64,000 nt of DNA from Iphione sp. A-MEVVRFRX5 (Eukaryota), in the NCBI GenBank assembly GCA_976226885.1, contig OZ320323.1, forward strand, positions 28,210,001-28,274,000, given 5' to 3'. The translations under genes were made by a program, and so were the position numbers. Positions 1-47,108 of this stretch are shown here, one piece after another. The notes under the pieces were generated by a model. That model searched no databases. It was not told the origin of the DNA and worked only from the letters and a program-made list of their open reading frames with translations. Within the stretch, counting starts at the first letter, position 1; each line of letters opens with the position of its first letter.

Positions 1-187
1 ACAGGTGGGAATTTGGCAGGTATGCCTTGAGACCCATAAACAGGGCCATAAAAAGGGAGAAGTATTCCTCACCTGTCGGATCCCTCTCAGATTGAGTCAT
101 GGCAAGGTGTAAGTTCTCTTTGATCTAGTAACTGCTCTTGCGAAAGAGGGGAATTGCTCATTCCTGCCTGGATTGCTTCGAATTGCG

Positions 188-559
188 TCACGAAATGTTG
201 GAAACTTGCTGAGTATGCATTTGAAAAGGAACGTTAGTGTTCCCGAGATAAGGAAAGGCCGGATGGGTACACTGGGTATGCTGAGCCAGCCCGGAGGGTT
301 TGGGCATGGTCGATCTAGTTTTTGCGATGGAGTCGATCTTTAAGGGAGTCGTTGATCTAACACTTGGACAAAAGAAACATCTCAACCGTCTGCTCTGGGC
401 ACCCTGGTGTAGCTCCTTCACGTGTCTCTCCAGAGACAAACCTCTCCAGAAAGGCCTCCTCTTCTCACAGAACTCACACAAGGCTGCTCCCTCTGGGATG
501 GGAGCTCCCTCTTTGAGCACCCGGGGGAGGCAAGGCTTCCCAACCTTTTGCCTTGCCAT
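188..559 (-). CDS. Accessory ORF with two C2H2-like zinc-finger motifs, inside the gypsy element
   Basis: CEFC-x14-HVKELH and CFFC...HTQCTH; ATG at 559 preceded by acceptor-like TTGACAG; possible 5'UTR intron 562-859 (donor GTAAGC). Confidence 0.55.
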   Translation of the reverse strand: MARQKVGKPCLPRVLKEGAPIPEGAALCEFCEKRRPFWRGLSLERHVKELHQGAQSRRLRCFFCPSVRSTTPLKIDSIAKTRSTMPKPSGLAQHTQCTHPAFPYLGNTNVPFQMHTQQVSNIS

Positions 560-1399
560 GACTGTCAACAATTCGTCGGACCTTGCCAAGGGGGCCCCGC
601 ACCCTCACGGACTTGCCTCGTCAGGGAACCGCAACGGCGACCACTTTGGGGTACCCCGAGCAACAGAGGGATACGACGGCTCACCAGGCCGATAAACTCG
701 AGGGCCCGCGACGGCCGACGGCCCCGAGCGTTCACCAACAAAGTCAACGTTACCACCAGAAGCTAGGTGCTTCTTTGAGTCCGGGGGTCCACAACAGGTC
801 ATAAGTCGGGGTACCCCGACCAGCAGTTCAAATGCAATGGTGAAGAGAGGATGGCTTACCAGATCGATGAACTTGGGGTACCACGATGTCCGATTGTCGG
901 CGGTCAACACTCCTCTGGCTTTGCTTCTCCTGGACTACAATAAACACAACAGAGCTTCCTTGCTTGCAAGGCAGGTTCCTTCCTCTAACTCCTCTTCCCT
1001 GTTTAGTACAAATCCTGTGGCAGCATCCCCTTCTTTTTGGGAAAAACAAGTTTGTAAGAAGTCAGTAAACTTCTACCTCCATGTTACTCAGTTGGCCCTC
1101 CGCGCGATCTGAAAACGAGGCTGACCTCGATCTCAGTCCGGTCGGGGTTCCCCAACCCGATTTGACATCGCTTCCTAATTTCCAGGTTTCTTTCTGTTGG
1201 GGGCCCCCGACTAACATAATTTCTCTTTTCGGCTCGCTTGAAAATCAATTGACGCTGTTTCGTACATTCCGGAGGTATCCGCTTCACTCGATTCCGCCCT
1301 TGCTGCCTATTCGCGTGGTTGGGGGTCCCCAACCTCATTTTTTACACAGTTATCCGGGCGACCGGGGTTCCCCAACCCGCTGTCGATTCCCGCTTCGTC

Positions 1400-1435
1400 T
1401 ATATAAATGAGCGTGGCGGAGGCTCGGCGTCAGTG
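1400..1435 (+). promoter_or_regulatory. TATA box + initiator of the antisense gene
   Basis: TATATAAA with TCAGT about 30 nt downstream. Confidence 0.55.
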
Positions 1436-1675
1436 TGTCTACTGCCTTCGTCGTGATCACATCATGGATGTTCCTGCTTATCTGACTGGGGCCACCCAAA
1501 ATGGGTTGTACCTGCCTGAAGATGGTGACATTTGTTTTCCTCCTCCCAGGATGAGGTAGGTCTCTTCCCTTGAGGCAAGGGATCCTCACTGTTGCCAGTT
1601 CTGGAGACCATGTTGCCACCTGGCAGTTAAGTTGGCCCTCCTTGGAGGCCATGTTGACATCTGGCAGTTGAGTTG

Positions 1676-1733
1676 ATGGTGCTGCCTCTTCATGGCTCTA
1701 CCCCCGGATGCTTTGGCAGGTAAGTGGTCAACC

Positions 1734-1776
<43 letters not shown>

Positions 1777-2470
1777 CCCTTTCTCTCTTCTCATTTACAG
1801 GTCACCCCCTCCTGACAGCTATATGCGATACGTCGATATCGGAACCCCTGGGCCCACCATTCGCATCTTCGGACTACATCCGGTCATCAATCGGCCCCTC
1901 TACGTGTCTGCCCCAGGGGAGGTACGTCTAGTCGGGCCCTACCACTATGTGGACATTTCAATCCAGCCCATTTTGCCTCCCGTGGCGCCACCGACCGGCT
2001 TCTGGGCACCCCGCTTGGATGTGGTGTCCCCGGACCTGGGCCCCGAAGAACTCACCCCGTATCTTACCACCCTGGAGTCTGGGCCCCCCCATGAACAAGA
2101 CTACAGGGATCGTTGGTCGCCTGCCTCCCTGTCTACCTCGATCTTGGACCCTTGGCCATCCTCCTCTCCCTCCTGGTCACCCAGCACCAGCGCTACTTCT
2201 ACATCCAGCTCATCTTCATCGCCTCCCGCCTCCGACTATCCTTGCTCTCCTTCACCGATGGAATGGGGTACGCCAGTAGACACCCCTTCTCGCCCCACCC
2301 CACCGAACTCGCCCGAAGCAGGTCCCTTGCTCAGCCATGCTCATCTTCCTGCCTGGACGCCAGAGATCCTGGAATCCTGTTATCCCGGTCTACGGCCGGG
2401 GGACTGTCCCTGGTATCCCGTGGTTATCTCGGACACTGATGAGGGCGAGTCATTCAGGGGATACATCTAA
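1676..2470 (+). CDS. Antisense spliced accessory gene, join(1676..1719,1801..2470), ~237 aa Pro/Ser-rich protein of unknown function
   Basis: Intron GTAAGT (1720)...poly-T tract...TTTACAG (1800); splicing removes an in-frame TAA and joins ATG 1676 to the 215-aa ORF; TATATAAA at 1400-1407, Inr-like TCAGT ~1430, AATAAA ~2539. Confidence 0.6.
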
Positions 2471-2954
2471 TTGGACTGGGGGGGTGGGGATGTCGTATTA
2501 CCTTGCTGCTGTTTTTGTTATTGCATGGCTTCAGTAATAAATAATATAATAATTACATTCCTGGTTGGCACCCTTTTCTGCTTCTCACGATTGTTGCAAT
2601 CATCCTGCCATTCTGGCCAAGTAACTTCTGCCGTAGATTATACTTGTACATTCTAGTAGTTTACTGTAATGCGGTGACTACATCTTTTAAATGAATGTCC
2701 CATATCACCTCCATTAACAGGTTTTGCCACCCTCTTCCAGAGGACATAAGAGCAGCTTGGCATCTTACCCACTTCAAGAGGACAGTAGAGCAACTGGGCC
2801 CGCTTGTTCCTTTCCATGGCCGTGATGATGTCCCGCCCTTCGTCCAGAGGACATCTCCTCAACTTGGTCACCTTCTTCAAGAGGACGTAAATGCAGCTTG
2901 GTATTGTACCACTTCTAGCAGCACAATCCTGGTTACTTCTGCCTTCTAGTCCCC

Positions 2955-3915
2955 TTAACACCCCGCTCCAGGGGTAATCTTCTGTTTCGAGCAGTCCCAG
3001 GGCGTTTTATTTACCCTCACGGATCTTCTTGCGCATTCTTCAGGGTACTCATCCCCCTTGTGGGTGTCTGGGTTCCTCCCCAGCTTTTCTCGGTGGGATC
3101 CCCTTCTCCGGGACCCACCGCTTCCCCCACCATGGACCTTTTTGCCTCCCCCCCTCTGGCGATGGGGGGGGGGGCCCGGATGTCCGCCCTCCTCTCATGA
3201 GTTTTCTGAATGCCGCCAGGATGTCCGTCCTCCTCGTAGGCTCTTCCGCACTTTCCCCATGCCAGGGTGCCTACATCCCCTCAAAACTCTTCCGACTGCT
3301 CCAGGACACCATCCTTCTTCAGTATTCCCAGGGCCCTAGGGCCCCGTGGTCTTAGCCTTTTCTTGTTGTCTTCGCCACGCTACCACCCACCGGGGTACAG
3401 CCTCCCCCTTGTACTCGCGTACCCGATTTCGGTGTACGACCTTCGGTTTGGCTTGTCTGGCTCGCTGAATTACCACTCGCTCATCATCCAGCTTCTTCAC
3501 CACTAGCCATGGCCCTGTCCAGGGGAAGAATATTTTTGGACTTCTCCCTTTTGGGGGCTGGGCGTCGTGTAACCAGACCAACTCTCCGTCCGCAACAGGG
3601 TGTGCTCTTGCCCTTCGATCATAAGCCCTGGCCTGTAGCTTGGCTGCCCGTTGCAGGTGTAGCCGGGCCTCCCGATAGGCTGCTTGGAGGCGCTGCGCAA
3701 TCTCAGCTACCTTCTCAGATAACGGCTTCTCCTCTTCAGAGGGCTGAGGCACCCCGTCAATAGCGTGAACTGGTAGAATCACCTCCCGCCCAAACATAAG
3801 CATGTTGGGCGTATAACCCGTACCAGCCTGAGGGGAGGCGCGGTAAGCCATCATCAGGTAGGGTAAGGCTTCATCCCATTCGTCTTCCACCTCGTGACAG
3901 TGGGCCTTGATCATC
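2955..3915 (-). pseudogene. pol: Integrase C-terminal part and degenerate tail
   Basis: DEWDEALPYLMMAYRASPQAGTGYTPNMLMFGRE, ...KIFFPWTGPW...VVHRNRVR (GPY/F module); RRSVRVNKTPW tail near 2995-3030. Confidence 0.85.
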
Positions 3916-4738
3916 CTTGGATGCCGCAAAGATTCCCTCATGCTTCTTCAACACCTCTTCTAGTGCCCCCAGTTCTGGTTCGGACAGCTGGCTTGCAGCC
4001 GCAGTCAAGAGGGTTCTCCAAGCCTTGTCTGGTTCTAAGCAAACGCTGCGTACCTTGGGCCCGGATGCCTGAGGGGGCTCCTGTTCACTCACAGGCTGGC
4101 CCATGGCTAATGGGGTCCCTTGTTTCAGCACCACTGCTCTCTCCCCTAGGTTCCATAATGGTAGGGTCGTTCTAACTATACATCGTATCCCGAGGATACC
4201 CTTCCCCAGATTTTCCTCAGCCCCCCTTCGACAAGGAATGAGTTCCCCTAGCCACCCCCTCGCCAGCTGGTAGGGTTAAGTCATGAGCAAGACACAAGGG
4301 GGTCTCCTGTCCCCACTCTGCCGGGTCGATCCCCCTGTGGTTAAAATTTATCTCTCCTCTAGCTAAGTCTACCACTGCTTTGTGGTGGTTCAAGAAGTCA
4401 CTCCCTAGTATCCCATCCCCCTGGATCCTTGCTACCAGGAATGGATGTTGAAAATGGCCCCCCGCAATCTCTAAATCCAATACTTCTTCCCCTAAGGTGG
4501 GAATGACATGTCCTCCCGCTCCCGAGATCCGGGTTCCCCCCTTTTCCTCATCTAGGCCAGGGGCCACATCAGGGTTGATAATGGAAACTTCAGCTCCTGT
4601 GTCCACCAAAAACATGTGAGTATTGCCTCGAAGGCTTACCTGCAAGTGTGGCCCCTGGCCTTGTTCCACTATCCGCCCTGTAGGGGTCTTGTCAGCCGGG
4701 CCTCCCTGGCCTACTGGGCCGGCTGTGTTCTGTTTCCC
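3905..4738 (-). pseudogene. pol: pol N-terminus: retropepsin-type aspartic protease and pre-RT linker (frameshifted)
   Basis: FLVDTGAEVSII...GILGSDFL (ORF 4217-4759); LEEVLKKHEGIFAASKDDQG linker (ORF 3871-4134). Confidence 0.88.
4680..4738 (-). promoter_or_regulatory. -1 ribosomal frameshift signal (G GGA AAC + downstream stem/pseudoknot)
   Basis: Heptamer at 4732-4738; 6 nt later CAGCCGG pairs with CCGGCTG; loop GTAGG can pair with downstream CCTAC; the -1 frame is the protease ORF. Confidence 0.75.
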
Positions 4739-5554
4739 GAAGTGGGTAACTCTGGACAATTTCTCTTAAAATGCCCCTGCTTCCCACACTGATAGCATCC
4801 TGTAAACCGGGGCTTACGGGGCTTGGTTTCCTCCATGGCAGCATTTTCCTCGCGGAATTTCTTCAGCTCCTGAGCTATCACTTCCTCCATCTCCTTCTTC
4901 CAGGCTGGAACAGATGGGGTCTGTTGCACAGTATTGACGGTCTTGGCGCGGAACCGCTCCTGGGTCTCCATAACCTGGATGGCGTTATCCAGCGTCGTGC
5001 ATTTCGCTTCCAGGCATTTCAGATGGAGAGTATCTGCCAGTGCCCGTTGAAAAGCAGCTACTGCTGCCAGCTCCCGGGTTTCCCCGGTGACGTCCGGGTA
5101 GGCTGTTCTAACTAGCCGCCTCACTCTATCGGCTAGGTCTCGTACGTCTTCTTCTTTCCCTCGCCTCACCCCCCAAAAGTTTCTGCATGGCGATTACCCA
5201 GTCCCGCCGGCGGCCAAACCGCCGCTCCAAGGCGGCCACCCTGGAGGCGTAGTCCTTCTTTTCTTTGACTGGTAGATCGCCATAGTACATACGGGCCGCC
5301 CCCGTAAGAGACAAGGTTAGGGCTAAACATTTCGTACCTTCTCCCCAGTGACAGGCATCAGCCCATTCTGTGAACTGCCCAATCCAGCTATCCCAATCAA
5401 CAGTCTTTCCATCAAAGCGTTCCGGTTTCAAGGTGTTTACCTTCAAGGGCTCTTCAGGGGCCATCACAAAAGGCTCCTCCCCCTCCTCGTCCGGAGTTGG
5501 ACTGGGTACACGAATCTGCACTTCATCATCAACATCTACATACCTTGTAGCCAT
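4711..5554 (-). pseudogene. gag: gag (capsid-like region + CCHC zinc knuckle), one frameshift near 5170
   Basis: ORF 5126-5554 (KPERFDGKTVDWDSWIGQF...LSLTGAAR) and ORF 4711-5169 (CYQCGKQGHFKRNC) join if the G6 run near 5169-5174 loses one base. Confidence 0.88.
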
Positions 5555-5566
5555 CTTGCTTGGGGA

Positions 5567-5584
5567 ATCCCACTTCTGACACCA
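5567..5584 (-). promoter_or_regulatory. Primer-binding site complementary to the 3' end of tRNA-Leu (CAA type)
   Basis: Minus strand TGGTGTCAGAAGTGGGAT right after the LTR end ...TTACA-C; the plus strand reads GAATCCCACTTCTGACACCA, the 3' end of eukaryotic tRNA-Leu. Confidence 0.9.
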
Positions 5585-5585
5585 G

Positions 5586-6117
5586 TGTAATTTGCGTGTT
5601 TAATCCTCCACTTGGGTGTATCCAACTATTGTTACTACAGTCCAGGCTTAGTATGATCCACTGAAGTTAACCCATGTATCCTCCCAAGAGGTAGTCCCAA
5701 GTGGTTATGTGCTGCTAAGGTTCCCCGGAAGAACAAGTGCCACAAAGGTAATCCAAGTGCAAACTGGTTTATTGGTCACACAGGACCCATATTTATACCT
5801 CTCAAACAAGTCATGTGATCACAGAAAATAGCAACCATGTACTCTTCTTTGGAATAAAATGTATACAATGTCTCTTGTGTTGTCATTCTACACCAATCAG
5901 CTGTTGGCACCCTGGATGGTACCTAGAGATCCAGGGGCTAAGGTCACCTCTAATCTTAACTGGTTCGGGGTACCCCAACGATCCTTATATCTGGGGGTCA
6001 CTCGGTGCATCTAAATTCCCCTTGTGTCTGGGGTACCCCAGCCCAAACCTTCCTAGGGGTGAACAAGTACATTCAGACAAGCAGCTCAACCCTAGCTGAC
6101 TCGGGGTACCCCGTACA
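5586..6117 (-). repeat. 5' LTR (~532 bp)
   Basis: TGTA at 5586 and TACA at 6114-6117; 1 nt from the PBS; minus-strand TATAAA (5792-5797) then AATAAA (5768-5773). The outer boundary is inferred because the second LTR is not visible. Confidence 0.75.
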
Positions 6118-9100
6118 TGAAAGTTCTCCCTCTCTACAGTACGTATATAGTCAGTGTTTCCTTTGGACTGTACACAACTACTATGTCTGATGATAAAAAA
6201 GTAAGGAATGCTTTACACAGAAAAACGTAGACAATAAGAAACAGCTTGTGTAATCTTATAAATTGGTTTCTATGTGTAACACTGACAGGCATAATTATGC
6301 GTTTTACTCCAGGTCTTGGATGAAACACCACCTAAAAGTAACGGCAATGTCTGCATGTATGTCATGCGGTGAGGGTCAGTGGACATTGATATTATACACA
6401 CAGGAATGTCCTTGATCTATATTCACTGCAGTTTAGGGTTAATATAATCGTTGGCATGTAATACAGGACTGGCCTGTACCCTGAAGACTTGGATTACCTT
6501 GGACGTGTTGTCTTTTCTTCTCCTGGAGAAAATTCACCTTCCTGTGGTCACCTCAGTGCTATCAAATACCAGGTTGCATAATCATGTAGCCAATAAATAT
6601 TGATATCCTACTATGCAAAGCAATCTCCCTGAAACAGAAAAAAAGTAAACACGAGTTGTCCCCCATAAAGGACTGGCTCTAAGGGAGGGGGGGGCGGGGG
6701 GTTCCCTTCTTCTCAAATCGCTGTCTGTACCTATTGTCTTCAGTTATCTCCCTCAATCCATATTTGGGGCCAATTTGTTGATTTGGGCCATAAAACGCCA
6801 AGTTGATTGTTTGCGCCTTTCAATATTTGGTACCATTTGTTTATTTTCCCTTTTACGTACATGTCTTCTTTATGCAGAATACATTCCGGGTCATTTTGTG
6901 ACTTTGGGTCACTGGATGCTATGTGGAAAGTTTGCATCTTTCAAACCGCTTGAACCCTTTTAGCCATTTACCAAACCCTTCCTTTTTATCTAAAACACAT
7001 TTTGGATCATTCTATAGCTTTGGAGAAACATCTCTTTGAATCGGTTTGCAACTCTGGGTAACAGCAAAAAAAAACAATTTCAGAGAAAGGGGACAGTATA
7101 CCCTTAAACATGGCCGATTTTGTCCATTTTGTGCCCTTCTCTTTCATCTCGGATTCATCTATTCTCGACAATAAAATTTTTTTGTGGAGACAAAAAAACA
7201 TTTTACACCAGGTGTACATTTCGGGCCTTTTTGTCTATTCCTACCCTTCATCCATTTTCGCCTCTCATTCTTAGTTCTATTATGAATCGAATCATACGGT
7301 AACTTTCAACCATTTCCTGCTGATGTCCTACATTAGTATTTAAAGACATACTAGATTCACGTGAAACCTTTGAAAGCAGACATGTGACCTCTCACAAACG
7401 ACATGTCTGGCCGCCGTGGTCAGGGGTCAACAGCCTAGAAATTGTATTTCCTGGCTCACCACTACGGACATAGCTATAGGTCAGAAGCAATATAAAAATG
7501 CACGTTATTCAAGTGAAAGAAGTACTTTGTTTAATAAACCTGGTGGCTGGTGAATATCCTACAAGTACAGCACACACACATTTGTTTGGGACATGAGGGG
7601 GAAATCAACAAGAAGTAAGGAACATGGCGAGTACTCTTTCCTGCTCAGCTCCTTTTCTTCAACCTTCTATGTTTTGCCTTAGAAAAGAATGGAGCTCAAA
7701 GCTGCCAGTTGAAGCTACACGCGTATATGGCATGAATTGAATATACATGAGTGTATATTTATTCGATTAACTACCCCTGAAGTAGCTTACCTCTCCTGTC
7801 TGGATCAATTACGTAGGCTTTCTCGATCCATGCGGATACCATCATATATACCCACAGCAGTTCACAGCAGCCACTGTATGGCTATCGTCAAAACACAAGA
7901 CGCCCACTTAAAGATTATGAAAGCGTTAGTCCTCAAGTTCCCTTCCTCCGTGGCAAATTCCTTTCTTCCATATTCTGCAGCTTAATACTGGCCAATGTCT
8001 ACTTTGTGAACATATTTAAAATTATTCTGAGTCTTTATACCCCATAGACAATTTTGCATCACAGTTGTGCCGGGAAATGTACAGCTAAAATAGTCAATCC
8101 ATTTGAGTACAATCAGTTTACGATCAGCAGTCTAGTTACATTCTGACAAAGTCTAGCTGAAGACATGGAAAACAGTAATGTAACATTCCTGCGAGAAAGA
8201 GAAAAGAGAGAGGATGTGAAAGGGAGGGAGAGAGAGAAGGTGAGAGGGGGAAAAGGAGCTGAGGGGCAAAGACTGGTAGACACAGAGAGACAGGATGAAA
8301 GGGAGCGGGAGGGGGGGGACATCCTGTCACCAGTTATAGAGAGGGAACTTGAAGTATCCATATCCATACTGGCACTCCAAAAATAGTACATAATGAAACA
8401 ACTCCTGCTGGATCTGTCAAGACAAACATGCTATGCAGAAAAAGGCCTCCTCGCGACTGAGGTCAACACCATCTCAAATCTTTTGTCGAGGGAATAAAGA
8501 AAGTTGAATCTTATTTATTAATATGATCGTTACCTGCGAGTAGACATGAACATTAGTTCATCTTGTCGCCATTTCTTCTACTGTGCTATCTGAAGAATCT
8601 GAACATCCACGCTACAGGCTACCATAACTATTCAAAAATGGTGCCATTCGTAATCAGCTACAGTTATAAAAGAGTCACATTTCAGTAAGCTGGGCATAAT
8701 CCACATCTTTATTCGATTACAAGATATAATTCCTAATAAGGGTTCCTGGCCTTGTTTTAGCTGTGACCCAAACTATAGTATTCACTGTTTACTTTTTTTG
8801 AGTGACACTAGAGCTGGACCAATCACAGTGTATCCCGCCCAAGATGGGGGAACTTGCACCATAGAAAAACAAAGCTGTCTAGCACTGCAATAAATTGGGA
8901 GGTTAAATATCTCTTTTAATATTGCAGATAGACTTATTTGCTTTAAATAGCATAAAGAATATAAATTAACCCTGCTTCTAACCAACATTTGTATTTTTCC
9001 ACCACATCGACTCTGAAAGTTGACAGGGGGAGGAGTTATCACCTCAAAAGTGACAAGTGAATTCTAGCTGGCTTTGTGACCCATACTTCAACTATGACCA

Positions 9101-10914: not shown

Positions 10915-12270
10915 TTTTTTTTTATTTTTCTTTATTTCACCTGATATTTATATACAATAAGTACGATTTCTCAGGTCTCTTTCATATCATGTTTACGAGT
11001 GTAGTGTATTTACAGGAGGTGTTGTTATTTGCATATATACATATCTATACATACTTTGATACATTATGTACAGTAGTATGGTTATTATGATATGAGTACG
11101 ATAATGGGTGAATGCTGACGCGGGTAGATGTTACCTTCATTCTTATTGTCAACTTTCCCTCCTAGACATTGCCCAAGGAGTACGCTATAGCCGTAAATTT
11201 TGAATCTCACTGTTGCAATTAACATCACGTTTCATTACATTCGACTGTTGTTACGATGGGTCCTTGACAGATATTAAAGCCTTCCAGACATAGCCCAGGA
11301 AGATTACCGACTGTCCCATAGACTGATATGCCCAATGGGAGTTGATGGCACCATTTACAGTTGTTCTTGTTGTTTTAAGAGTAGTTTGACTCGTTTATTA
11401 AATTCCTTTTTGGGACAGCTCGTTATCGACACCGGTAGACTATTCCACATCTTTCCTCCAGCATATCCTATACTCTTCTTGAATGCTTCGTAGTTAGGTT
11501 TCTCGATTACAAATCTTGGCTTTGCATCATTCCGTGTTTTCATGTTGTTAGACTTGGTGGTCTGTCCTAGGGAGTGACGGCTGTACATTATTGAGAGAAC
11601 CCGGAAATTCCTTCTTGTAGAGAGATTGCTGATGTTAGCGTCCTTTTTCGCCTGGGACGATCGTATCGGGTGATTGTAGATGGTTCGTATTACTTTATTG
11701 TACATCTGTGCCAGGCGCTGGAAGTTTTGAGAATTTTCTCTGGTGAACAGTATTACACCATATTCCAATTGTGGCAATATTGTCGTTTTCACTATCAGTA
11801 TTCGATCCTTGAGGGTTAGCAGATTTTTCAATTTTCTAAACAGGAACAGCTTCCTACTGACTCGCGATAGAACTGAGTCAGTATGCTTTTCATAGGACAT
11901 GTTGTTGTCAATCAAGACCCCTAGATACTTGTATACGGGGACATGTTCTAAGGTGTAATTATCGTAGAGTATGTTAGGTGGGTCTCTTACTGGGTACCTA
12001 TATCGATACCACATGGCCTTTGTCTTTTCTCTGTTAATACAGATTCTATTGTCGGTTGTCCATTTATGGATTGCACTAACGTCAGTTTGGATGCGTTCTG
12101 TGGCCTGGGTTCTTGTGTCGCCGATTGCAGTGATCACCATGTCATCTGCATAAAGTATAGTTTTGCTAAATTTGCAGACTTGTACTATTGGGTCGATGAA
12201 GATAGTGAATAGAAGTGGACCCAGTATGGATCCCTGTGGGACACCGCAGGTTATTTTTGTTTTGTCTGAT
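10915..12270 (-). mobile_element. 5'-truncated non-LTR retrotransposon (CR1/L2-group LINE)
   Basis: RT motifs CGVPQGSILGPLLFTIFI and LYADD, then YKYLGVLID; frame open to the stop at 11355; 3'UTR ends in AATAAA and an A-rich tail at ~10915-10937. Confidence 0.9.
11355..12268 (-). pseudogene. LINE ORF2 C-terminal fragment (RT thumb and C-terminus)
   Basis: The 261-aa ORF 11355-12140 extends upstream in frame through YADD and GVPQGS. Confidence 0.88.
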
Positions 12271-13067
12271 ATTAATCATATATATGTAACATAGGAAGTT
12301 AGTTTTAAAAGATGTGCTCCAGTAGAATTAATTACAGCAGTACGTCAGTGCCCTCACCAAAATATGTATGGAAAACACAATCATCGTTGACTTCTAGAAA
12401 TAGAGTGAAGTTTAACTTATTTATCCTTCCATGGTGATCCTCCTCGTTCAGTTTTTTCCTCCGAAAGGAACGGTTAGTTCTGGGCCTCGAGTGCCCTTAG
12501 ATATGAACGGATTCAGGTCTTGGTCTGCCTAGGATGCTAAGGGATTCCGTGTTTGATTAAGCTGCTAGGCTGAGAGTAGGGTGGGACACAAGTGTCTCGG
12601 GTCAAAGCTAGGAATACAGCCATTGCGCCGGAGGGCTGGGATTATTTCATCTTTAGACCACTCCTTTATCGAATCCCTCGTGTAATAGTCCGTCTACTAT
12701 AGAGTTTTATGGTTGGGAGAAATTTTCTCAGTAACACATGGTAACTTGTATAGTCGTGTATGTTCCAACATAAATATCTATGAGAAAGAGGTGTTATATC
12801 AAAATGGAAACCACAAACTCATATTGACAGATATTGTGGTATACAATTAATATTTTTATTCTTCACACATAATTCACTGCTTCCAAACAAGGATCAAGTT
12901 GAATTCACATGAAAATATTTTCGTAATTGACCGCACAGCAGTATCTTCGCTCTCTTCTTTTTCCTCTATATCTTCCATACATCCTTTCATGTTGCTCACC
13001 AGTCCTCCTGTTATCTCTTTATCCCGACCTACCCAGTTCTTTATCCCTTTCGACTGCTCTCCTGCTC

Positions 13068-15521: not shown

Positions 15522-16739
15522 CTACAAATATTAAAAAGATTATGTTTGGACAAATCCTCGATGTTGCCCCCAAGCAAACATGCACCTCCATCACTACATA
15601 AGCCAGGCATATGGAAGCAGTATTTGAAGTCGCCCAACCAACAAATGTTATTTTGAAAGGCGGATTTAGAAACCATTCGGCCAGTCAGACTCAGATAAAG
15701 AACTGTAAGTGACAGGCCTGATCCTGCATCAATCATGCTTGATCCTCAGTCATTGTGTGTCTTGTTTCTTGCACAATGTCTCCTGATGAATGACCATCAT
15801 GAACGAGCTCCAATAGACCCTTGGTCCTGGCTACTTTGCACTTCTTCCTTGACGTTAGGAGGTCGTCACATAGCAGAAATGAATCATAATGAAAAGATCG
15901 AGAGACGAAATCTCCGTGGCTCCAATTGCTCTCTTAATGTCAAGAATTCTTTCCATTTGGTTTGTGACAGGCAGCAACATGCGAACGATATGTACCACGG
16001 AAAGGTTTACATGCAAGTTGACTACGTGTGGATTGGTTATGTTAGCAATGGAAGATTCAATTAAAGATTGCTATTTGGAAACGTTAAACTTAACTGGCAT
16101 GTTCTAAAGCATAGATCTTCAACTGTTTCCATGATATCATAGCGAACAAGGGTGCACAGTTGACACCTGTCAACCATCATCACATTAACCGGATATTTGC
16201 ATTAACCATAACAAAACCAAATTATTAAATAATTTTCTGTATAAATTTTACTATTATGTTAAATCCACTGTCCACAATCAGAGTAGATTTCAAGCCATTT
16301 TGAATTAATTTATGTAGACAATAAACACAGTTAACCAGAGTGAAGCTTGTCTGATGCTGATCATTGGGTATGCAAACATGACATGCCCAGACCAGGTGGG
16401 GTAGGGTCTGTTTGAAGAACATAGCATCACTTGCTCAAACAACACAGGAAATTCACTGATGCGGAGAGACTCACAAACAAAGGCAGACTGGCAGGGGACT
16501 TGCAAAGCCATATCACATATGGGTATCAATGTGTGTTTTTAGGGAACAACAATATCCACCAGGAGGTCGTCCCGGGGCTATTGTATTTGTGATGTCCAGT
16601 TGTCTTGACCAAGGCATCCTTCTGGGCATGCAAATGGGCATAAAAGAAGGAGTTTTGGGACAATCTGGATTTATTTCTCCAGGAAGCTTTGACATTTCAC
16701 AACCACCAAGCAAACACCGCAGGATATGCATCACAAACA

Positions 16740-18660
16740 ACCAGAAGAAAGAACCCTGGAGTATCACAGACAGAGCTCAGCTTGAAATTCTCCTCGCAAT
16801 AGGGGTTTGCTCTACCCAGATCAACACTGTCAGACATCTTGAAGAGATCATCCCATTGGATGGGTATGTCCAGTGACAAGGGCAACCTATGTCATCAACA
16901 CTCACCAACAGAGGTCAGATTTGAACAAGCCTTGTCTATCTGGTTCAGTGATGTATGTGGTCAGGGTGCTATTCTAAGTGACAATATGCTCATCATGAAA
17001 GCAAGATGTCTACGTGGGCAACTGGGTTTGGCTGATTTCAATTAGAGCTGAGGCTGGCTTGGTCCTTTCAAGACAAGAAATAACATTAAGTGCTTCAAAC
17101 AGCATAGCAAGTCTGTGTCAGCAGATCTTACCCAAGTTGAAGAGGGTCGCTCATCCCTCCAGGAGGAATTGTCTGGTTTTGACCCCACCAACATACAGGG
17201 GAAACTCGCTTTGCGACCACCACTTGGGTCGGCCCAAAATGGTCGTAATTCTGAATATGGTCCCAAAGTGATTGTGTATGGGGTCTGGGCTTGAAATCAT
17301 ATCCCTTTCTCCCTCTCTCTTTATTAACATATGAAACGTCCAAAAAGTGCTGAATTGGACCATTTGACCTGCGACCACTGCTGGCAGACCCTCTCCAGGG
17401 TGAGAGACCATCAAAGACGTCGGAGTTGACACCCTCGACCACTGCCGGCCTCACCCCTCCAACGTGTGAAACCATCAAAGACGTTGCAGTTGACACCTGC
17501 GACCACACCTCCAGGGTGAGGCGGTCGTATAGTGATATTAAAATGTGCTGAAAACGACCCTAGGAGGTGTGGTCGCAGGGTGAATTTGGTCGCAAAGCAA
17601 TATGGTCGCAAAGTGATATGTTATCATATGGTAAATGTACTAAAATTGCTTCCGTTCCGACCCAAAATGGTCACAATAGTCGATTTGGTCGCAAAGTGAG
17701 GAGGTCGCAAAGCGAGTTTCTCCTGTATACAGTGTGGATGAAACTTGACTCCTTTATCATTTGAAGCCTACCTCCACCCTCTCCACTGCTGCTCTCAAGG
17801 AGGAGAAGAGGAGTAAAGATCAAATCACTGTTGTATTGCCGAGCAATGCGACAGTAGATTTTGTCCCCTGGGTACAGGTAAATGCTTCTTCAGGGGTTTG
17901 ACCGTGGGATATATGTTCGTTATCGTCACAACCAAAAGGCATGGATAACATTCACATTCTGGCATGACTGCCTCCATATGTTGAATCAATGAGCGAAAGG
18001 CCAGGTACAATCTCACCTGGAAATTCGTCCCCCCAAACACAACTGCCCATGTACAGCCCTTAGATGCTTGTATCATCGCCTCTTTCAAAACACATTACAG
18101 GAGGAGGCTGGTGAGACATTTTCTGGATTGTGTAGAAAGTGATGCCCCCATGGTCACAAATCTCAGGAAGGCCATCCTGACGCTTGCTGAAAGCCTGGGC
18201 ATCTGTGAGATCAACCACCATCCAGAGGTACTGGGATTATGTGAATATCCTCCCAAGCCAAGGCAACACCACATCTGAAGATAACTACTCAGATGAAGAT
18301 AATCTCCTTTGTCTGAACTCCAGACACTGCTCCAGGCCATGCCCGGTGAAGGTGGGCAACCACTGATGCCTGCCAAGGAGTATGCCCAGGTAGACTCTGA
18401 GGCTGAAACAGCTGGAGATTTGACAGATGGGGCCATCCTGACTCTTGTGACTCAGCCTCAGGTGACAAAGGATGACACTGAGGACATTACCCCAGCTCCA
18501 ATCACCCTAAACGAAGTCACCAAGTCAGTAGACATTCTTGTCAGGCTCTGTAAGGAGCAGCAAGATATCACTAGGATACCATTCCTCAGGGATCTGTTAC
18601 AGAATGCCCAGAAAACCCAGAAGAGTAAAAGACAGACATTCATCCAGGTTTCTTTAAGTG
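16740..18660 (+). pseudogene. Decayed pogo/Tigger (CENP-B-like HTH + DDE_1) transposase
   Basis: FEQALSIWFSDV...GWLGPFKTRNNI HTH; NIY|SVDET split by a MITE; PPNTTAHVQPLDACIIASFKTHYRRRL; AWASV; KRQTFI tail; several stops and frameshifts. Confidence 0.85.
17196..17725. mobile_element. Tc1/mariner-pogo type MITE (530 bp), TA TSD
   Basis: TIRs CAGGGGAAACTCGCTTTGCGACC / GGTCGCAAAGCGAGTTTCTCCTG; TA on both sides; removal restores AAC ATA TAC AGT GTG GAT GAA ACT (NIYSVDET). Confidence 0.92.
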
Positions 18661-20096
18661 CAAATAAGCACAATGTCTTCGGGTATGCCTATGTATATTT
18701 TTTTTAATATATATTTTCCCTATTTTTCCTATGGTTAATTCATCTGTCTAAACCAGTAAACACTTCCATGCACTGTACTTGTATGTATTGACAATAATAA
18801 ATGGCCTCACCCATAACTACAATTGAATGTGTCATTTTTCAACTTTCCGAAACATTACTTAATTTATTATATTTCTTACATACTTACTGTTATGCGTGTT
18901 TTACCCACCAGGAGATGCTCTGGTAGCATTTAAAATCAATACAGATCAATATAAACCCATATCGATAATGTTCTCATACTTTACTATTATGCAAATTTTC
19001 CCTGCCAGGAGACACATGGGTAGCGATCGTCTCCAGCTAATAAGTCTATACTGTATTGGATGAAGAGATAATCTTGTGTTTAGTCCCAATGTCAGTTTAA
19101 AGTCTCTCGAAGCTATTTGTAATCCTTTTGTCAGCTGTCTCTGCAATCTTCTGAATAGTATGCAAGAGGTATCATTGATTTTATCTATACCATAATCATG
19201 AACTGAGTTGCAAAATCACACACTGAGTCAGCAGTTATTATACCACAGCCTCCTGGGATTGTCAGCCTGGATGTGGCCCTGAGAAAGGCCTTCTTTCCAA
19301 ATACCTGTGTATTATTGTTGTTTGTCACCATGTTGTCGACGTGCTTTTTGGTAACAGCAGGAGTGTATATATGCATGTTTGTATTGTGTATGGTGTAGCT
19401 TATGTGCATGTATCACAGGGAGACTTTTCATAGGCTTCAGCTACACACTACACAGGTACCTGAGATAGGAGAATTTATAGCTCTGTATGTATTAAGCTGT
19501 TCTGGAAATAATTCATATACATGTAGTATATTCCACCACTATATTGTATCGTCTGGTAAAGACTTGCCAAATCAGAAGTGCAAAAAGGGCATGAATCATT
19601 TCTGTTCATTTTTGAAAGAAATTATTATTATCCAATGGAATGTTTGCCGCTTAAGGTAAAATTCAGTCATGTTGACATCAGGACTTCCACCCATATGAAG
19701 AAAGCTATCTTCTTACGCGCAGCAGGTCATGTTTCCCCGTTTTTAACCATGGAAAAACCATTACTATGACGACGGGATGAGGAAGAGAAGAGAACGTAAG
19801 GGTTGAATGTTGTTAGCTAAATATGAATAATTCCTTCTGCGTAATGCATACCTATGGGTGTGATAAGAAAGTCAAAGTTCTGTAGAAGAGTCTTAGGCGG
19901 AATTCCCAGCCAACACAGAAACGTTTTAAAAATATTGTAAAAACGTTGTAAAAGACATTGTAAAAACGTTGTAAATGAAAGTTTGTATCATGTTTTCCTA
20001 ACCTGATATGAAAATGTTTTAGGACTTTTTTTAAGAAAACGTTATAAAAACTTTTTTTAAACATTTGAAGAACAGGTATGAAAAAAGAATGAGAAG

Positions 20097-20214: not shown

Positions 20215-20490
20215 TTGGCTGCTCTCCTGTTGCTCTCAGACGTCCCCACACCTCGCCAGGCCTCCTCTTAAGCCTTGGCCGCTCTCCTGTCGCTGTCAGA
20301 CGTCCCCACACCTCATCAGGTGCTACATGTATACTCGGTCATACTCCTGTCGCTGTCAGATGTCCCCGCACCTTGACAGGTATTGCCCCGGCCTTGCACG
20401 TCCTCCTGTGGTTCTTAGAAGCCCCCCGCACCTTGTCAGGTACAGCCCTGGTCTTGGTTATCCTCCTGTTGCTCTCAGAGGTCCCCAGAA
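20215..20490 (+). repeat. 60-bp tandem repeat, ~4.5 degenerate copies
   Basis: CTCCTGTYGCTSTCAGACGTCCCCRCACCT... recurs at 60-nt spacing (20221, 20281, 20341, 20401, 20461). Confidence 0.9.
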
Positions 20491-23400
20491 GTTCTAAAAT
20501 GATTGCAAACATTCTAACCAAATTACAACAGTGTTAAAAGGTTTTATAATGGTTGCAAACATTCTAACCAAATAAAAACGTTCTTAAAATGTTATAAAAA
20601 GGTTGCAAACGTTCTAACCAAATTAAAACACTACACAACGCTTTTAAAACGTTGTGTGCTGGCTGGGTTACCTCACCAACATCCTGTTTGTTCCCCACGT
20701 TGCGGAATGCTAATATATTCCACGAATCTCCATGCACCATCCTACCTGTCTGGTAATAGCTGTTTCTTTAATTGGGATATTCAATATCATTAGCAACATC
20801 CCAGAGCTTACATATATACCCGTATTTTTTATGCGCATGGGCTTAAATTTGTAACATTCTTAAGGAGTAAACTTCAGTTAACTTCAGGTATAAAAGATTG
20901 TGTGACACATTTCCGCACATTTCCCTTACTGTGAGGGGCAAGCAAATGATTTGTAGTGAATTTGATGGATAAAAGCCCCATTTGCACCAAATTTGAGGGA
21001 CAAAGGTCCGATTAGCGGTGAATTTGTGGTGATTTCTATGTGTCTGTGGGCATATAGACTATCCTTGTCTCTGCGGAACTCTGTACTAGGATTTGGGCAG
21101 AAGTACATGTACTAAGTAAGCTACAACGTGTACAGACCTTTAGAGTTGATCTAATGCATTTGTTTTATGTCTGTATGTACAAACGTATATTTTATGTACG
21201 CAGGTATATAGCAGATTCTGCATGAATCTTTGTGCACGTTTCTGTATGATTGAGTAACTGGCTCTGATAACAAGCGAATCACTTGTAATACTAAAGGCCT
21301 AATTCAAGAGCACCCACTGTGAATATTAAGAGGAAATGACACGCACCTTGTTACAGCCTAAGCCTCCTAGTAAGGACACTCGTGAAACTTGACAATTTCG
21401 AAAAGAATCAAAGGTGGTGTTATTAGGCAAAATTTACTGTACAGCTAGTGCTTAAACACGTCTGTCAATATATACCACCGTCAATAAATAAAAGGTAACA
21501 CTGAGTTCATAATCGTACAGGTACGAAAATATTTTCGTAACCTTCTTGCAAATTTACTACATCATCGACTGCTGCATCGTTCTGGGTAAACCACGTCACA
21601 GAGTTGCTATGACAGACTTATTAAACCTGTCAGCTTAGAAACAATGCAATTCTAAGCTATTCCCACACCAATAACCTATAGGGAGTGAAATATATAATTA
21701 TACTCGGTTGGACATGCACTTAACTGTGCGTGGGCTTCCTACCGGCGAAAGAGGATTTGCAGCAGGCATTATGCAATTTATGCATAACGAGTACTTCACA
21801 CATGTGATGATTTTTACATCAACTCTTCCAAACTGCTTTGACTGTAATGGGTTCCATTTTGCCTTAATTTTGCATGCGGCTATTTTTGCTCCCGCAATAC
21901 GAATTAATGACTTTTTAAGTACTAGGGATGAGAGTCAACATGGAGATGGCGATGGGTACCTGATGCTGAAAGCAGCGACAGTATCCCAGTCCTGAGGTGA
22001 GATCATAGGGTTTGGCCACTCTTTCACAAATGATTTACTTAATCGCAGTTCTGATAACAATAACTACACCAGCACTACACCTTTTTTGGAGAGTTTCGGT
22101 CTATTTTTCTTTTATTTCGACTCACTAATTGCTTGTTTGGCAAGGGTGCCATCTAAAACTATGTATTGTGCATATCTGACCCAGTAAATAGCCTACTGAG
22201 CATGCGCCTTGGATGAAAAATTTGATACTTCCTGTTTCGACTCCCTGGAAAACCCTTTAAAAAAATTAAATGTACTTCTTCTCTGATGACCTTTATGTCT
22301 TTATATATTGGTGTGCGATAGGTCAACATAACATTGACATTCCTGTCATGAAATGGTGAACGCTAACACGATAAGAATAGAAGCTGATGGCAGTCTTGAC
22401 AGGCTTATCATTTCCATTAGTGTTATTAGAGCTTAGAGGCAAATCTATCACTAAAGGAAGGGAAAATTGGATTGGTGCCTTAGCATGGAACACGAGTCTA
22501 AGGCTTGGCGTAAATATCCATCCCTCAGCTTTTACAAGGACCCAAACATTACAATTAAATATCATTAAGATGTTTAAAGGGTGGAATATTGATTGATCCA
22601 GACGCCCCATAATCAGAAGGACCCCCATTTCGTAAGATAACACAGAATCAACTCTTAAACATGGGCTTTCACGGTAATAGGTTTTTTCAAAACCTTTTAC
22701 AGCTTTGTTCTCAGTTGCTTTGATTATTTACAAGTTCATTAGATATCTGTTTAAGATGACTGGGACCAGGCAAACCATTGTTAATGTTTTAGCCATCCGG
22801 CAATGATAATTATTCACGGCTGATACATATATATCTTGCAGGGTCCATCTTTTTTATTGGGCCTAATAGGAGGTTGGTAGGTTGATAGGAGGTTGGTTTC
22901 TTATGCTACACACCACTATAAAGGAAGGTCGTTCTCTACCCAGAGCTATGTCTTGGAAGCTTCCTGATGGTAGACTAATCCACATTACCTGATGATGTGT
23001 CATTTGATGCAATCTTCTCTGCAATCATCCCTGGGGTATGATTTTGATCAGATTGCCGCGGAAACCCGAACAATCCTTACTTAATCCATCAAGAAAGCAA
23101 ACAGTATACGCATGTAGTCCCTCGCTCCCATTTTGGCAAATGGTCATGGCTCAGTGAATTATGTAATCCCTAAGGGTAACTCTGAAAGCGTTTACAGCAT
23201 TTAGTTCAGAATGTCTTTCTCGGTCATATAATCATGATGGAATTCATTGCTGATGATTTATCACGGCCGGTCGAGACTTGCGCTTATATACTGTTTGGAG
23301 ACTGTCGTGAATATAGTAGGTGAAAAACAATTTGAGACATGTATGTGACAATTCAACGCTTCGACTGAATTGATGCTTATGAGCAAAAAAACGCTTGAAT

Positions 23401-44248: not shown

Positions 44249-47108
44249 TCATTTGCCTATCCTAGCCTTGAGTTGTTGGAACGCATCAGTGTGCCACAGA
44301 TTGAAGCAATTTCTTTCTCCACTAAGACAGATGGGTACGTTGCATTGCTCTTCTGAGCAATACCATTTGGTCTTGTTCTCCTTCCCATGCAGAACATAGC
44401 ATACTTTGCAGTTGCGGCGTGTTGAAGAATGCATTGGCCTGTGAACACCATCGAATCCAAAGTGGCTTCTAATACGTGGTCTCAAGGCAGTATGGGGGTT
44501 TTCTTCCAAGTCACTGATTCCAGCCAGCTGACGACAGAGTTCTTCACGAAAATTCAGGTGTGAGAATCCGCTTGGTCGTTGTAGAGCAGTTACCTCGGGG
44601 TGCAGCTTCTGCCACTCTTTGAACAGCAAGAAGCTGTTCAGCACCGACATATCCAGCAAATGATAGAATAGTGTCTTCCACCATTTTTTTGATTTGTGCA
44701 GCATGGAGTATGTCCCCAGGAGTTGGTCAGAGATGTCCACCCCGCCCATGTGTGAGTTGTAGTCATGGATAGCCAATGGTCGCCTGATCATCATTTCCCT
44801 GTGACTTCCATCAGGTAGTTTCAGGTGACGCCTGACGAAAACATAATCACATCCTCTGTGCATGCTGCTGCAGGCACACACGGGCCTATTGTCCAGCCAT
44901 TGTTGACAGAGGATCCTGTCTGTTCTAATGAACCGTGTGTCTCCTCTTTGGGCTGCCTTTGCCCATGCCTTGTCTCTGAGGGCCTGCAATATTTAAGTGA
45001 TAGTATTTACAAATAATTCAAAACTATGAAGGATGAAGATTACAGTAAAACCCGATGTGCTTGCCTTCTTTCATCATGCTTTATTGTAGATCGTTTCGGG
45101 ACACTCGACCCCCTTCATCAGGAGTCTTCATACTTTATAATTAATTTAATTTTTTTTTTAATCTCAATGTAAAACTCACCGCAGGAAAGCCACGCCGTGT
45201 GACCACACTCGTTCCACAAGCAGCAGATCCCCTGGACATCAGACATTTGATGAGTGGCAGAGATGTAAAGAAATTATCAAAATATATCTTGTACCCTTGG
45301 TCAAGATGCTGATCCATGAGGTTAGTAACAACATCGTACCCAAGGCCATGTTGTGATGGGCGCTGACATCTACCAGTGTATACACTGTAAAAACAGTCAA
45401 TATCAGATATTCATTACATGCGCTGAAACTGTCTTGGCGCAAACATTTGGAATTCCATTCTGGATACAGTTGAACCAAATATATGCATGTTAATACCAAG
45501 TGCACCAAAATTGTTAAACACACTACTTCCATCACAAAGACAACACTTATGCACACCTGAAGTTGATGGTGTAACCTGTTGTCGACTGGCATAAGCACCA
45601 CAGCTTAAAACCAAACCGTATTGGTTTATTGGGTATAAATTGCTTCAGACTGCATCGTGCCTTTGAGCGCACCATACGTTCGTCCACAGCTACATGTTCC
45701 TTGGGTTGATATAAACTTGAACACATCCTCCTGACATGATCCAACACTGGTCTGACTTTTGCTAGGTGGTCAGTTGGGTCCTCTGCAGATGGGTTACTTG
45801 CATGCAGCATGCTAGAGATGGCCTTGAATCTAAAAGAGAGAGGATTACACTTCAAATACCTTATGCCTTAGTACATATGCCAATTTAGAATTCCAATGTT
45901 CATCATGTTGATGCTGAGTACAGAAACATGCAGGTTCTTAGTCTCAGGTACTTAGGTATTTAGTCGCCCTATCAAAATGATTCTGTTTTGGCACTAAAAC
46001 CTACACACCCATGGTTCTCTAATATTTTCCATTTCACCCAATTTTTCGTTGTGAGTATGTGGGCCAACAAGAAGCACGGGGCTCACCGATTTCTGGAGAG
46101 AAAGCGTGATGCCCATCCACCGGAGTACAATGTTGACTGATTCCAATAACGTGACACATCATGAAGTTCAATGAAACCCATCAAGATACACAGCGCTATG
46201 AATGATCTCATCTCTTGAAATGTCACTTCGTCCCAGGTACCTTGTGGGGTAGCATACGATGGCTTGTTATGGATCGTCAGCCAGCCATACAAATTAGTGT
46301 TATCACACAGCATCTGCAGAAGCAAATATGGAAGGATGTTCATCCCACATAGGATTCAATGAGGGCTACGATAAGGGGATGTTACAAATCATAAATACAT
46401 CAATGAAATGAACATATATATGATACAGTTACACATGCACATACTTGCATCAATTCATGAGTGAAGAATAGCTGGAAAAAATCCACAGCTCTGGTGAGTC
46501 CTTCCATGCGCCATCTCGTAATCCTATCTGATACATGGGGGCCTGGAGCCCGCATGGGAGTGAATGCAGGTATACTTGGATGTGAGTCGTCATCCTCATA
46601 TGTTTTCGGCCTGTAAAAAAAAAGTATATTAACAAATGTTTCAACACTGCCAATAATGACTATCCATAGCGCAATGGATAGCGCACTTGCTTTTGGTGCG
46701 CACGACCCGGGTTCGATTCCCAGACGATTTTTCTGTCAACAGATGAAAACCTTTTTTTTTCATTAAAAAAAGCACAACTATATAATAATTATATTTAAAA
46801 ACATAGTTTTACATTTAATCTTGCAGTTTCACCTTAATTACGAGATAATTTGGCAAAAACGTTTGTTAATCATAGAAGATTCACTTTTACCTTGATGTTA
46901 TTGGACGAGCAGCTCCAACAGCCGGGACTTCTTCCATCTCTTCTTCATCAACTTCCATCATTAAATCATTCATCTCAATTTCCTCTAATTCTTCCTCTTC
47001 ACCTGATGACATCCCTGACATCTCGTCACTTTCCAAAGCTTTTTTCCCTTTTCCTGAATTCCATAACTCCCGAGCTCTTAGAGCAGCAGATCTCACAGTA
47101 CGTGACAT
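44249..47108 (-). CDS. piggyBac (PGBD4-like) transposase, six exons: 47108-46891, 46610-46445, 46313-46087, 45829-45557, 45384-45180, 44983-44249; 607 aa
   Basis: All five introns are GT-AG with matching phases (2,0,2,2,0); 1824 nt open; acidic N-terminus, DFFQLFFT, VAVDERM, NKPIRFGFKLW, FDNFFTS, YNSHMGGVDISDQ, KKWWK, C-terminal CKVC...C...C...C...CFNLWH domain. Confidence 0.93.
45078..45125 (-). ncRNA. Hammerhead-ribozyme-like core of Penelope-like-element type in transposase intron 5
   Basis: Minus strand CTGATGA-A-GGGGG-TCGAGTG-TCCC-GAAAC-GATC followed by AATAAA; helix I partner not evident. Confidence 0.45.
46660..46732 (+). ncRNA. tRNA-derived Pol III-type unit (not a canonical tRNA) in transposase intron 1
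   Basis: A box TAGCGCAATGG, B box GGTTCGATTCC, then TTTTT; the acceptor stem does not pair. Confidence 0.5.

Follow-up and report, generated by a model that had tools for sequence, protein, structure and literature searches.

The 64-kb stretch of DNA analysed as a whole (hereafter the window) begins with a Ty3/gypsy-type LTR retrotransposon, which occupies its first 6.2 kb and is encoded on the minus strand. Domain searches together with the order of the features confirm the gypsy arrangement of LTR, primer-binding site, gag, protease, and integrase. The 5' LTR (5586–6175, minus strand), whose right edge is uncertain (about 6140–6176), contains three palindromic sites in its U3 region (5967, 6030, and 6103) as well as a minus-strand promoter consisting of a TATA box at 5797 and an initiator-like site 30 nt further, with an AATAAA just ahead of the latter. 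One base off the LTR end, a primer-binding site (5566–5584, minus strand) is recognizable by its sequence, which we take to be of the tRNA-Leu type and which has matches of 18–26 nt in 3 of 82 related loci; the window contains no tRNA gene, and Rfam gives no match in 1–7000. Gag with a CCHC zinc knuckle (4711–5554; zf-CCHC, E 3.6e-5) is split over two frames and is followed by an aspartic protease (4217–4765; Asp_protease_2, E 3.4e-9) and by the C-terminal half of an integrase (3336–3947), located downstream of an internal deletion near 3925, all on the minus strand. Reverse transcriptase (RT) and RNase H, as well as the N-terminal half of the integrase, are missing, i.e., about 730–790 codons as judged by the spacing in the polyproteins of two related loci (L003 and L009), and the gap between protease and integrase spans about 150 codons in this copy as opposed to 875–950 in relatives. 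The reading frames of the element are interrupted in a few places. By its domain content, this gypsy copy is evidently non-autonomous, RT and RNase H having been deleted. The nearest integrases share only about 40% identity with that of the window.

Between 0.8 and 1.9 kb past the integrase stop, an intron-containing transcription unit is predicted in the direction opposite to gag-pol, and a spacer repeat of four degenerate 31-nt copies (2723–2910) separates the integrase from the poly(A) signal of this unit. A preliminary description had placed the unit inside the retrotransposon and antisense to gag-pol. Its direction is indeed opposite, and it lies antisense to and beyond pol, but it does not overlap gag-pol, and a position inside the element has to be deduced, as only the 5' LTR lies in the window. 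No second or 3' LTR is found within the 64 kb, the element extending past the left edge, and the LTR gives no significant alignment to 1–3340 apart from common motifs. Region 600–1500 was considered as a diverged or inverted LTR and rejected, its alignment scores being within or on top of the shuffle range (1–3 of 100 shuffles at best) and explained by these common motifs. A GC content of 53–55% is unbroken over 1 to 5585, compared with 41% outside.

The remainder of the window includes the first coding exon of a rhodopsin-family GPCR (32350–32826, minus strand), which ends in a consensus donor after the DR motif; the exon marks the window as part of an animal genome. Other features are a truncated LINE-type RT fragment (11355–12275, minus strand), a piggyBac-like (DDE_Tnp_1_7) transposase fragment (44249–44992, minus strand), a decayed pogo/Tigger-like stretch recognized by eye at about 16700–18700, and two adjacent minisatellites with 60-nt and 50-nt periods (20215–20649).

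Signals and 5' structure of the antisense unit

The core promoter of the antisense unit (1400–1435, plus strand) is made up of a TATA box (TATATAAA, 1400–1407) and, 30 nt downstream, an initiator (TCAGTG, 1430–1435), which predicts a start at 1432. Among the 72 TATA-like sites of the window, five distinct ones are accompanied by an initiator at 26–33 nt, and two of these five pairs belong to the gypsy element, namely the antisense promoter and the LTR promoter. The intron (1720–1800, plus strand) is 81 nt long, of the GT-AG type, and bounded by the donor CAG/GTAAGT at 1720 and the acceptor TTTACAG/G at 1800, which rank third of 7,529 GT and second of 7,785 AG on both strands of the window when scored with a rough frequency matrix. 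Only one host donor can be identified in the window, that of the GPCR exon, and it is identical to donor 1720 over all nine bases. Because the plus strand of the element is pyrimidine-rich, it abounds in good acceptors, and 4 of the 10 best acceptors of the window are located there. At the distal end, the poly(A) signal AATAAA (2536–2541, plus strand) lies 66 nt past the stop codon and is followed by CA at 2557–2558 and a T-rich stretch. TATA box, initiator, 81-nt canonical intron, and AATAAA, all of them in antisense direction as originally described, were recovered on direct reading and by script, and the seven ordered signals of the unit are in register. Removal of the intron had been said to delete an in-frame stop; in fact, the unspliced frame contains two stops in the intron (1721 and 1772), both of which are lost, and a frame of 237 aa is then open.

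Two start and donor combinations can be considered for the 5' part. In the first, exon 1 (1432–1555, plus strand) contains ATG 1464, which is the first ATG past the initiator, has an A at -3 and a G at +4, and stays open to the donor GAG/GTAGGT at 1556 (rank 30 of 7,529); this donor is in phase with exon 2, and splicing would produce 253 aa. In the second, ATG 1676 and donor 1720 give 237 aa without internal stop, with seven ATGs upstream. A first ATG with context, open and in phase to the donor, is obtained in 194 of 20,000 block-of-two shuffles (1,704 if context is not required), and some in-phase open ATG ahead of donor 1720 in 4,086 of 20,000. Because of ATG context, phase, and this rarity among shuffles, 1464/1556 is preferred as the better start and coding model. 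Donor 1720 then serves as a strong alternative, although the stronger of the two donors is thereby not part of the preferred coding frame. The short ORF from ATG 1464, formerly thought to lie upstream of the gene and to leave its 5' structure uncertain, does possess the ATG and the donor at 1556 but is probably exon 1 of the gene itself. The segment 1556–1719 (plus strand), intronic in the 253-aa model and exonic in the 237-aa model, contains five ATGs and a 41-nt tandem duplication (1602–1675). A model of three exons, the middle one having its end at 1719, was discarded, as all acceptors from 1574 to 1672 score below 0 and the two of suitable length hit stops. Six bases ahead of donor 1556, a strong acceptor at 1549 (rank 7) would define a micro-exon of 6 nt; no upstream donor matching it was seen.

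On the minus strand, 1732–1792 harbors a 57-nt purine-rich stretch, consisting of an A31-G9 run plus adjoining purines in the sense of the genomic RNA. Judged by composition, this run could double as an internal polypurine tract; it was rejected as the 3' polypurine tract of the element, since no LTR comes after it.

Predicted product of the antisense unit

The coding part of exon 2 (1801–2470, plus strand) comprises 222 codons and ends with the stop TAA (2468–2470). Its product contains 43 Pro, 33 Ser, and no Lys, and has a pI of 4.5. The Pro/Ser-rich ORF of about 237 residues reported in the preliminary description is present and open, but the protein runs six residues past the tail quoted there, and the compact N-terminal part attributed to it finds no backing in single-sequence structure models, which are poor (pLDDT 35.5 and 37.8) and, at a pLDDT of 35, uninformative on this point. 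A fold search with the second model retrieved nothing.

Dinucleotide shuffling leaves the 666-nt frame of exon 2 open in 9 of 2,000 cases and any frame in 30 of 2,000, and an ORF of this length arises anywhere in 1–3330 in 29 of 500 shuffles. On its own, ORF length would be only moderate evidence for a gene, and it is therefore the stack of signals that carries the case. All three minus-strand frames opposite exon 2 are stopped 8–10 times, so that the ORF does not merely mirror a gene in sense direction. Taken over its full length, the exon-2 frame shows weak codon-position bias (matched by 138 of 2,000 shuffles), compared with 0–1 of 500 shuffles for gag, protease, and integrase; each half of exon 2 is biased when taken alone (25 and 1 of 500 shuffles as high, respectively). 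An origin by chance, in which the "intron" would simply be complementary to an internal polypurine tract while the C-rich strand yielded the ORF as a by-product, seems very improbable to us. The 57-nt purine-rich stretch, the many acceptor-like sites of the plus strand, and the ORF lengths reached in regional shuffles are compatible with such an origin, but it leaves the consensus donor, the spacing of TATA box and initiator, the in-phase first ATG, and an AATAAA at 66 nt past the stop unexplained, and the purine tract is not succeeded by an LTR.

The antisense protein matches 0 Pfam families at E 0.1, and searches with the ORF gave no match in PHROGs or among PDB sequences, none among 414 candidates of 122–389 aa, no usable match in the protein atlas, and no homologue among 95 metagenome candidates. 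The tBLASTn comparison with relatives, proposed earlier as a check, likewise yielded no match to the antisense ORF in the 82 related loci. Four matches of the first 120 residues among 1.84 billion representatives were dismissed as tandem-repeat proteins whose scores are summed over repeats. In 25 loci that extend 2 kb or more past the integrase match, none of the 30 antisense ORFs of at least 120 aa carried the set of TATA-initiator, donor, acceptor, and poly(A) signal, and the ORF of the window passes the same filter; this is a loose control, as the filters were shaped on the window and the hosts differ. Among related loci there is no sign that the antisense unit would be clade-wide.

Lack of homologues and weak codon bias would also suit a unit that acts at the RNA level only, its transcript base-pairing to the genomic RNA in its 3' portion and feeding small-RNA silencing, a mode of action proposed for micropia, while the ORF is incidental; non-coding antisense RNAs of micropia and TART are indeed mentioned in PMC7264820. 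We nevertheless regard this as unlikely, given that the first ATG lies in strong context, in phase and open to the donor, that 222 codons are open, and that such an RNA would miss gag and pol.

Some short motifs of the predicted protein deserve mention. Near its C-terminus, an acidic tail (2420–2443, plus strand) contains VVI followed by S/T/D/E, which presumably fits the pattern of a SUMO-interacting motif (SIM) with acidic flank. The resemblance of VVISDTDE to a SIM, pointed out in the preliminary description, is real, but a SIM-plus-acidic pattern arises in 985 of 20,000 shuffles of the same protein (5%), and 2 of 17 long ORFs that come from related elements but are unrelated to this protein show it as well. 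The hint at interference with SUMO-dependent silencing, which had been drawn from this tail, has no backing other than the resemblance. That the protein is an anti-silencing factor, whose tail binds SUMO and disturbs SUMO-dependent silencing of transposons, appears improbable to us: the placement of the tail, with its acidic flank, near the end of a disordered, lysine-free protein speaks in favor, but against it stand the frequency of the pattern, the expectation from base composition that a product lacks lysine 8% of the time, and the literature found, which offers no such protein for an animal LTR element. A PTPPxSP stretch (2294–2314, plus strand), which we take to resemble Fbw7 phosphodegrons, is found as an exact, post hoc pattern in 48 of 20,000 shuffles (TPPxS in 1,566 of 20,000), and the 15 Ser/Thr-Pro sites of the protein are reached in 360 of 20,000. 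Tail, Ser/Thr-Pro sites, and degron-like motif fit a disordered, motif-driven regulator, and singly prove nothing. The ORF does not look like an env-type ORF3, which would be sense and encode a signal peptide and a transmembrane segment: it is antisense, its product is acidic and Pro/Ser-rich, and no long hydrophobic run was noticed on reading.

Palindromic sites and a zinc-finger ORF beyond the unit

All nine GGGGNNCCCC cores of the window lie within 1–6200, and none occurs in the other 57.8 kb. Six of them are situated in 648–1373, upstream of the antisense TATA box, forming the cluster 645–1376 (cores at 648, 808, 1144, 1199, 1321, and 1364; consensus GGTYGGGG-NN-CCCCRACC), and three are those in U3 of the LTR. 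Weaker palindromic sites are found at 783 and 875, within the cluster and between two divergent genes. The consensus widens to 18 bp by its flanks, which are conserved up to 4 bp past the 10-bp core on each side, and of the 18 half-sites, all have a pyrimidine at -1, 14 a T at -2, 11 a G at -3, and 12 a G at -4; site descent by duplication could add to this likeness of the flanks. Independent variation of the halves (five of nine sites are asymmetric) is more in keeping with recognition by a dimeric DNA-binding protein than with a hairpin, and an RNA hairpin was rejected because mismatches exist on both strands. All nine cores match the 10-bp GGGRNNYYCC, presumably the NF-kB consensus, and a host NF-kB-like factor is a live alternative as the binder, as far as the motif can indicate. 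One exact match of the palindrome in viral contigs, within a small phage-like contig, is ascribed to chance. The earlier reading of the unit, correct as to its signals, had missed both the 18-bp palindrome and the neighboring zinc-finger ORF.

The palindromic sites bear on the question whether 1–2600 might be a mere passenger, i.e., a captured piece of a host gene or a separate mobile element beside a 3'-truncated gypsy copy, serving no function for the gypsy family. Such an origin would accord with the missing 3' LTR, with the failure of the LTR to align significantly to 1–3340 beyond common motifs, and with the absence of the unit from all related loci. We think of it as rather unlikely, as the palindromic sites are common to this region and the LTR but absent from the other 57.8 kb, composition is continuous, and no host-type homologue is known from the searches. 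Also, no AATAAA precedes the minus-strand A-run, which thus is not an evident retrocopy tail.

Beyond the palindrome cluster, an ORF of 123 aa (188–559, minus strand) has the same orientation as gag-pol and thus diverges from the antisense gene. Of its two C2H2-like fingers, the first (from 478) is clear; the second is stretched and scores -1.7 bits on a profile of related elements. In the protein atlas, the ORF falls to C2H2-type clusters at 0.90–0.93 with low recognition, and its Pfam match (zf-H2C2_2, E 0.02) is below the cut-off. With the related-element profile, which was built from 23 loci (L028, L068, L073, and second matches in L005 and L029 being left out), it tops 1,676 ORFs of the window (E 0.0047) and scores above all 2,000 of its own shuffles, although this weak match possibly reflects generic C2H2 likeness. 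No homologue was obtained by tblastn of the 82 loci or by database searches, which returned chance-level matches at most. A minus-strand donor at 72 (rank 6) lies downstream of the ORF, and the gene may continue beyond the edge of the window; the ORF is probably broken or spliced onward past this edge. No promoter was identified for it, and an acceptor just ahead of its ATG was discounted (rank 1,629).

The related loci comprise 80 metagenome loci, gathered via integrase alignment, and one locus from a viral collection. A C2H2-like sense ORF is present behind pol in 26 of the 58 loci with at least 600 nt beyond the integrase match, a few of these being chance matches, and in most of them it has two fingers and starts 0.1–0.35 kb past the integrase match, as opposed to 2.9 kb from the integrase in the window. 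Because such ORFs are found behind pol in these relatives, the distal zinc-finger ORF is likely to belong to the same element, which would place the antisense unit inside it. By this pattern, a broad group of gypsy elements possesses a sense ORF of 200–600 aa right behind pol, encoding two tandem C2H2 fingers and then low-complexity sequence, with weak zf-C2H2 Pfam matches (for example L011:7076–8374, L015:1626–3377, L018:609–2105, L025:5051–6790, L027:7168–8565, and L043:1202–2872, among others). Two loci carry far longer ORFs of 1,366 and 1,635 aa behind or fused to the integrase (L016:11813–15910 and L068:3–4907), which contain C2H2-like fingers and no other Pfam match. In a quick integrase tree of 63 of the 82 loci and the window, in which L004 and L024 were labelled by eye, 19 rows labelled as zinc-finger-bearing fall into a clade of 28 rows (support 98) and six more elsewhere; the window branches just outside of this clade, on a long branch and with a fork support of 82. 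The two-finger ORFs behind pol may constitute an undescribed gene class in their own right.

Comparison with known systems and interpretation

Antisense additional ORFs between pol and the 3' LTR are described in the consulted parts of PMC7264820 and PMC11963269 for gene23 of maize Grande, for rice RIRE2, and for the TRP28 ORFs of Retand, where all clusters have antisense ORFs, mostly of the TRP28 type (PMC11963269). The unit of the window resembles these plant ORFs in its presumed position, in orientation, and in having its own promoter (shown for gene23, predicted here), and equally in a long post-pol region with tandem repeats and in a product of no known function suspected to be a nuclear regulator. 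In contrast to them, it resides in an animal host, has one or more introns, and encodes no TRP28 or SMC domain, Transposase_28 (PF04195) being absent from the antisense protein at the Pfam threshold applied above; furthermore, its promoter has palindromes in common with the LTR and is followed, on its far side, by a zinc-finger ORF in divergent, sense orientation. By the descriptions available in PMC8365987, PMC4227169, and PMC7264820, brtn of the Boty-like gypsy elements of Botrytis is likewise an antisense extra gene behind pol, but belongs to a fungal chromovirus; this comparison is one of descriptions and not of sequences.

HBZ of HTLV-1 is expressed, according to PMC1459196, as an antisense, alternatively spliced, and polyadenylated mRNA with translation starting in exon 1, and its product modulates transcription of the element. 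The point made in the preliminary description, namely that splicing of the genomic RNA leaves an antisense intron in place, holds logically, and spliced HBZ represents the same situation (PMC1459196). The layout with antisense splicing, polyadenylation, and a start in exon 1 is shared by the predicted unit. Unlike HBZ, a bZIP protein with its start in the 3' LTR, the unit of the window has an internal TATA promoter and no leucine zipper, and its element is a retrotransposon rather than a retrovirus. Response sites common to LTR and internal promoter, beside a candidate DNA-binding protein encoded by the element, recall foamy virus Tas, but the internal promoter of the window faces antisense and the candidate binder is a putative C2H2-like protein. 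Among animal gypsy-like elements, the ORF3s of bdelloid Vesta and Juno (PMC5408684) are family-specific extra genes behind pol, and Oikopleura Tor (PMC4402516) has an internal promoter; in contrast to our unit, those ORFs are sense (env, DEDDy, GDSL), and the sections of these papers covered mention no antisense gene or zinc finger. No such gene is described for animal elements in the parts seen of PMC8220671, PMC13524379, PMC4402516, PMC12477816, and PMC5718144, nor in those of PMC7998251, PMC8556966, PMC2774666, and PMC5408684. In the titles and abstract openings of a literature made up largely of open-access papers, neither a spliced antisense gene nor a C2H2 ORF behind pol of an animal gypsy element is reported. 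The layout as such is known; host group, sequence, and regulatory context look new, as judged from one broken copy.

The signals of the unit, their frame and their rarity, and the palindromic sites common to LTR and promoter are observed at the locus. On balance, and with moderate confidence, we favor the interpretation that the unit is an accessory gene of this gypsy family, transcribed antisense from its own promoter, co-regulated with the LTR, and encoding a disordered nuclear modulator. It would be located in a long post-pol region between pol and the unseen 3' LTR, a position suggested by the common motif, by composition, and by the zinc-finger ORF. The 18-bp palindromic sites may drive the TATA/initiator promoter as they may the LTR, so that unit and element would be activated jointly. 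The principal mRNA is expected to start near 1432, to join 1555 to 1801, and to end near 2558, whereas the donor end at 1719 would be an alternative and probably less productive. Due to the antisense orientation, intron and poly(A) signal should be invisible to the processing of the genomic RNA. The product, of about 250 aa, acidic, Pro/Ser-rich, disordered, and presumably without an enzyme fold, would most likely be nuclear and work through short linear motifs (the SIM-like acidic tail, the Ser/Thr-Pro sites, and the degron-like motif), possibly as a short-lived modulator of the transcription of its own element. Transcription and translation of the unit, the nuclear role, and the direction of the effect are what we infer from these features. 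The open frame of 760 nt, in a copy with few breaks, says little on selection after insertion.

A bolder version, which we consider unlikely, is that of a closed circuit. In it, the sense C2H2 protein would bind the 18-bp palindrome, understood as a pair of adjoining 9-bp half-sites, both in the LTR and within the divergent promoter inside the element; the latter would thereby induce the spliced antisense protein, which would feed back on this promoter or shield the element from SUMO-dependent silencing. The zinc-finger gene would then be ancient in this group of elements, whereas the antisense gene would have been inserted later, in the space separating it from pol, in a layout like that of a complex retrovirus. 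If it is true that the zinc-finger ORF binds the palindromes, gypsy elements would encode a sequence-specific transcription factor of their own. Antisense extra genes of LTR retrotransposons are a decades-old question, pursued almost wholly in plants and fungi, and a case from an animal, complete in its predicted promoter, splice, and poly(A) signals and sharing candidate operators with the LTR, lends itself to concrete tests.

A repeated palindrome of its own is seen in one related locus (L039), where eight copies of a AGCCGCGGCT core (701–782, 1843, and 2957–3015) lie directly past the integrase as well as at the far 3' end, on either side of an ORF of 368 aa that has an acidic SIM-like stretch. 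By analogy, these palindromes are possibly a parallel to the sites in LTR and promoter of the window.
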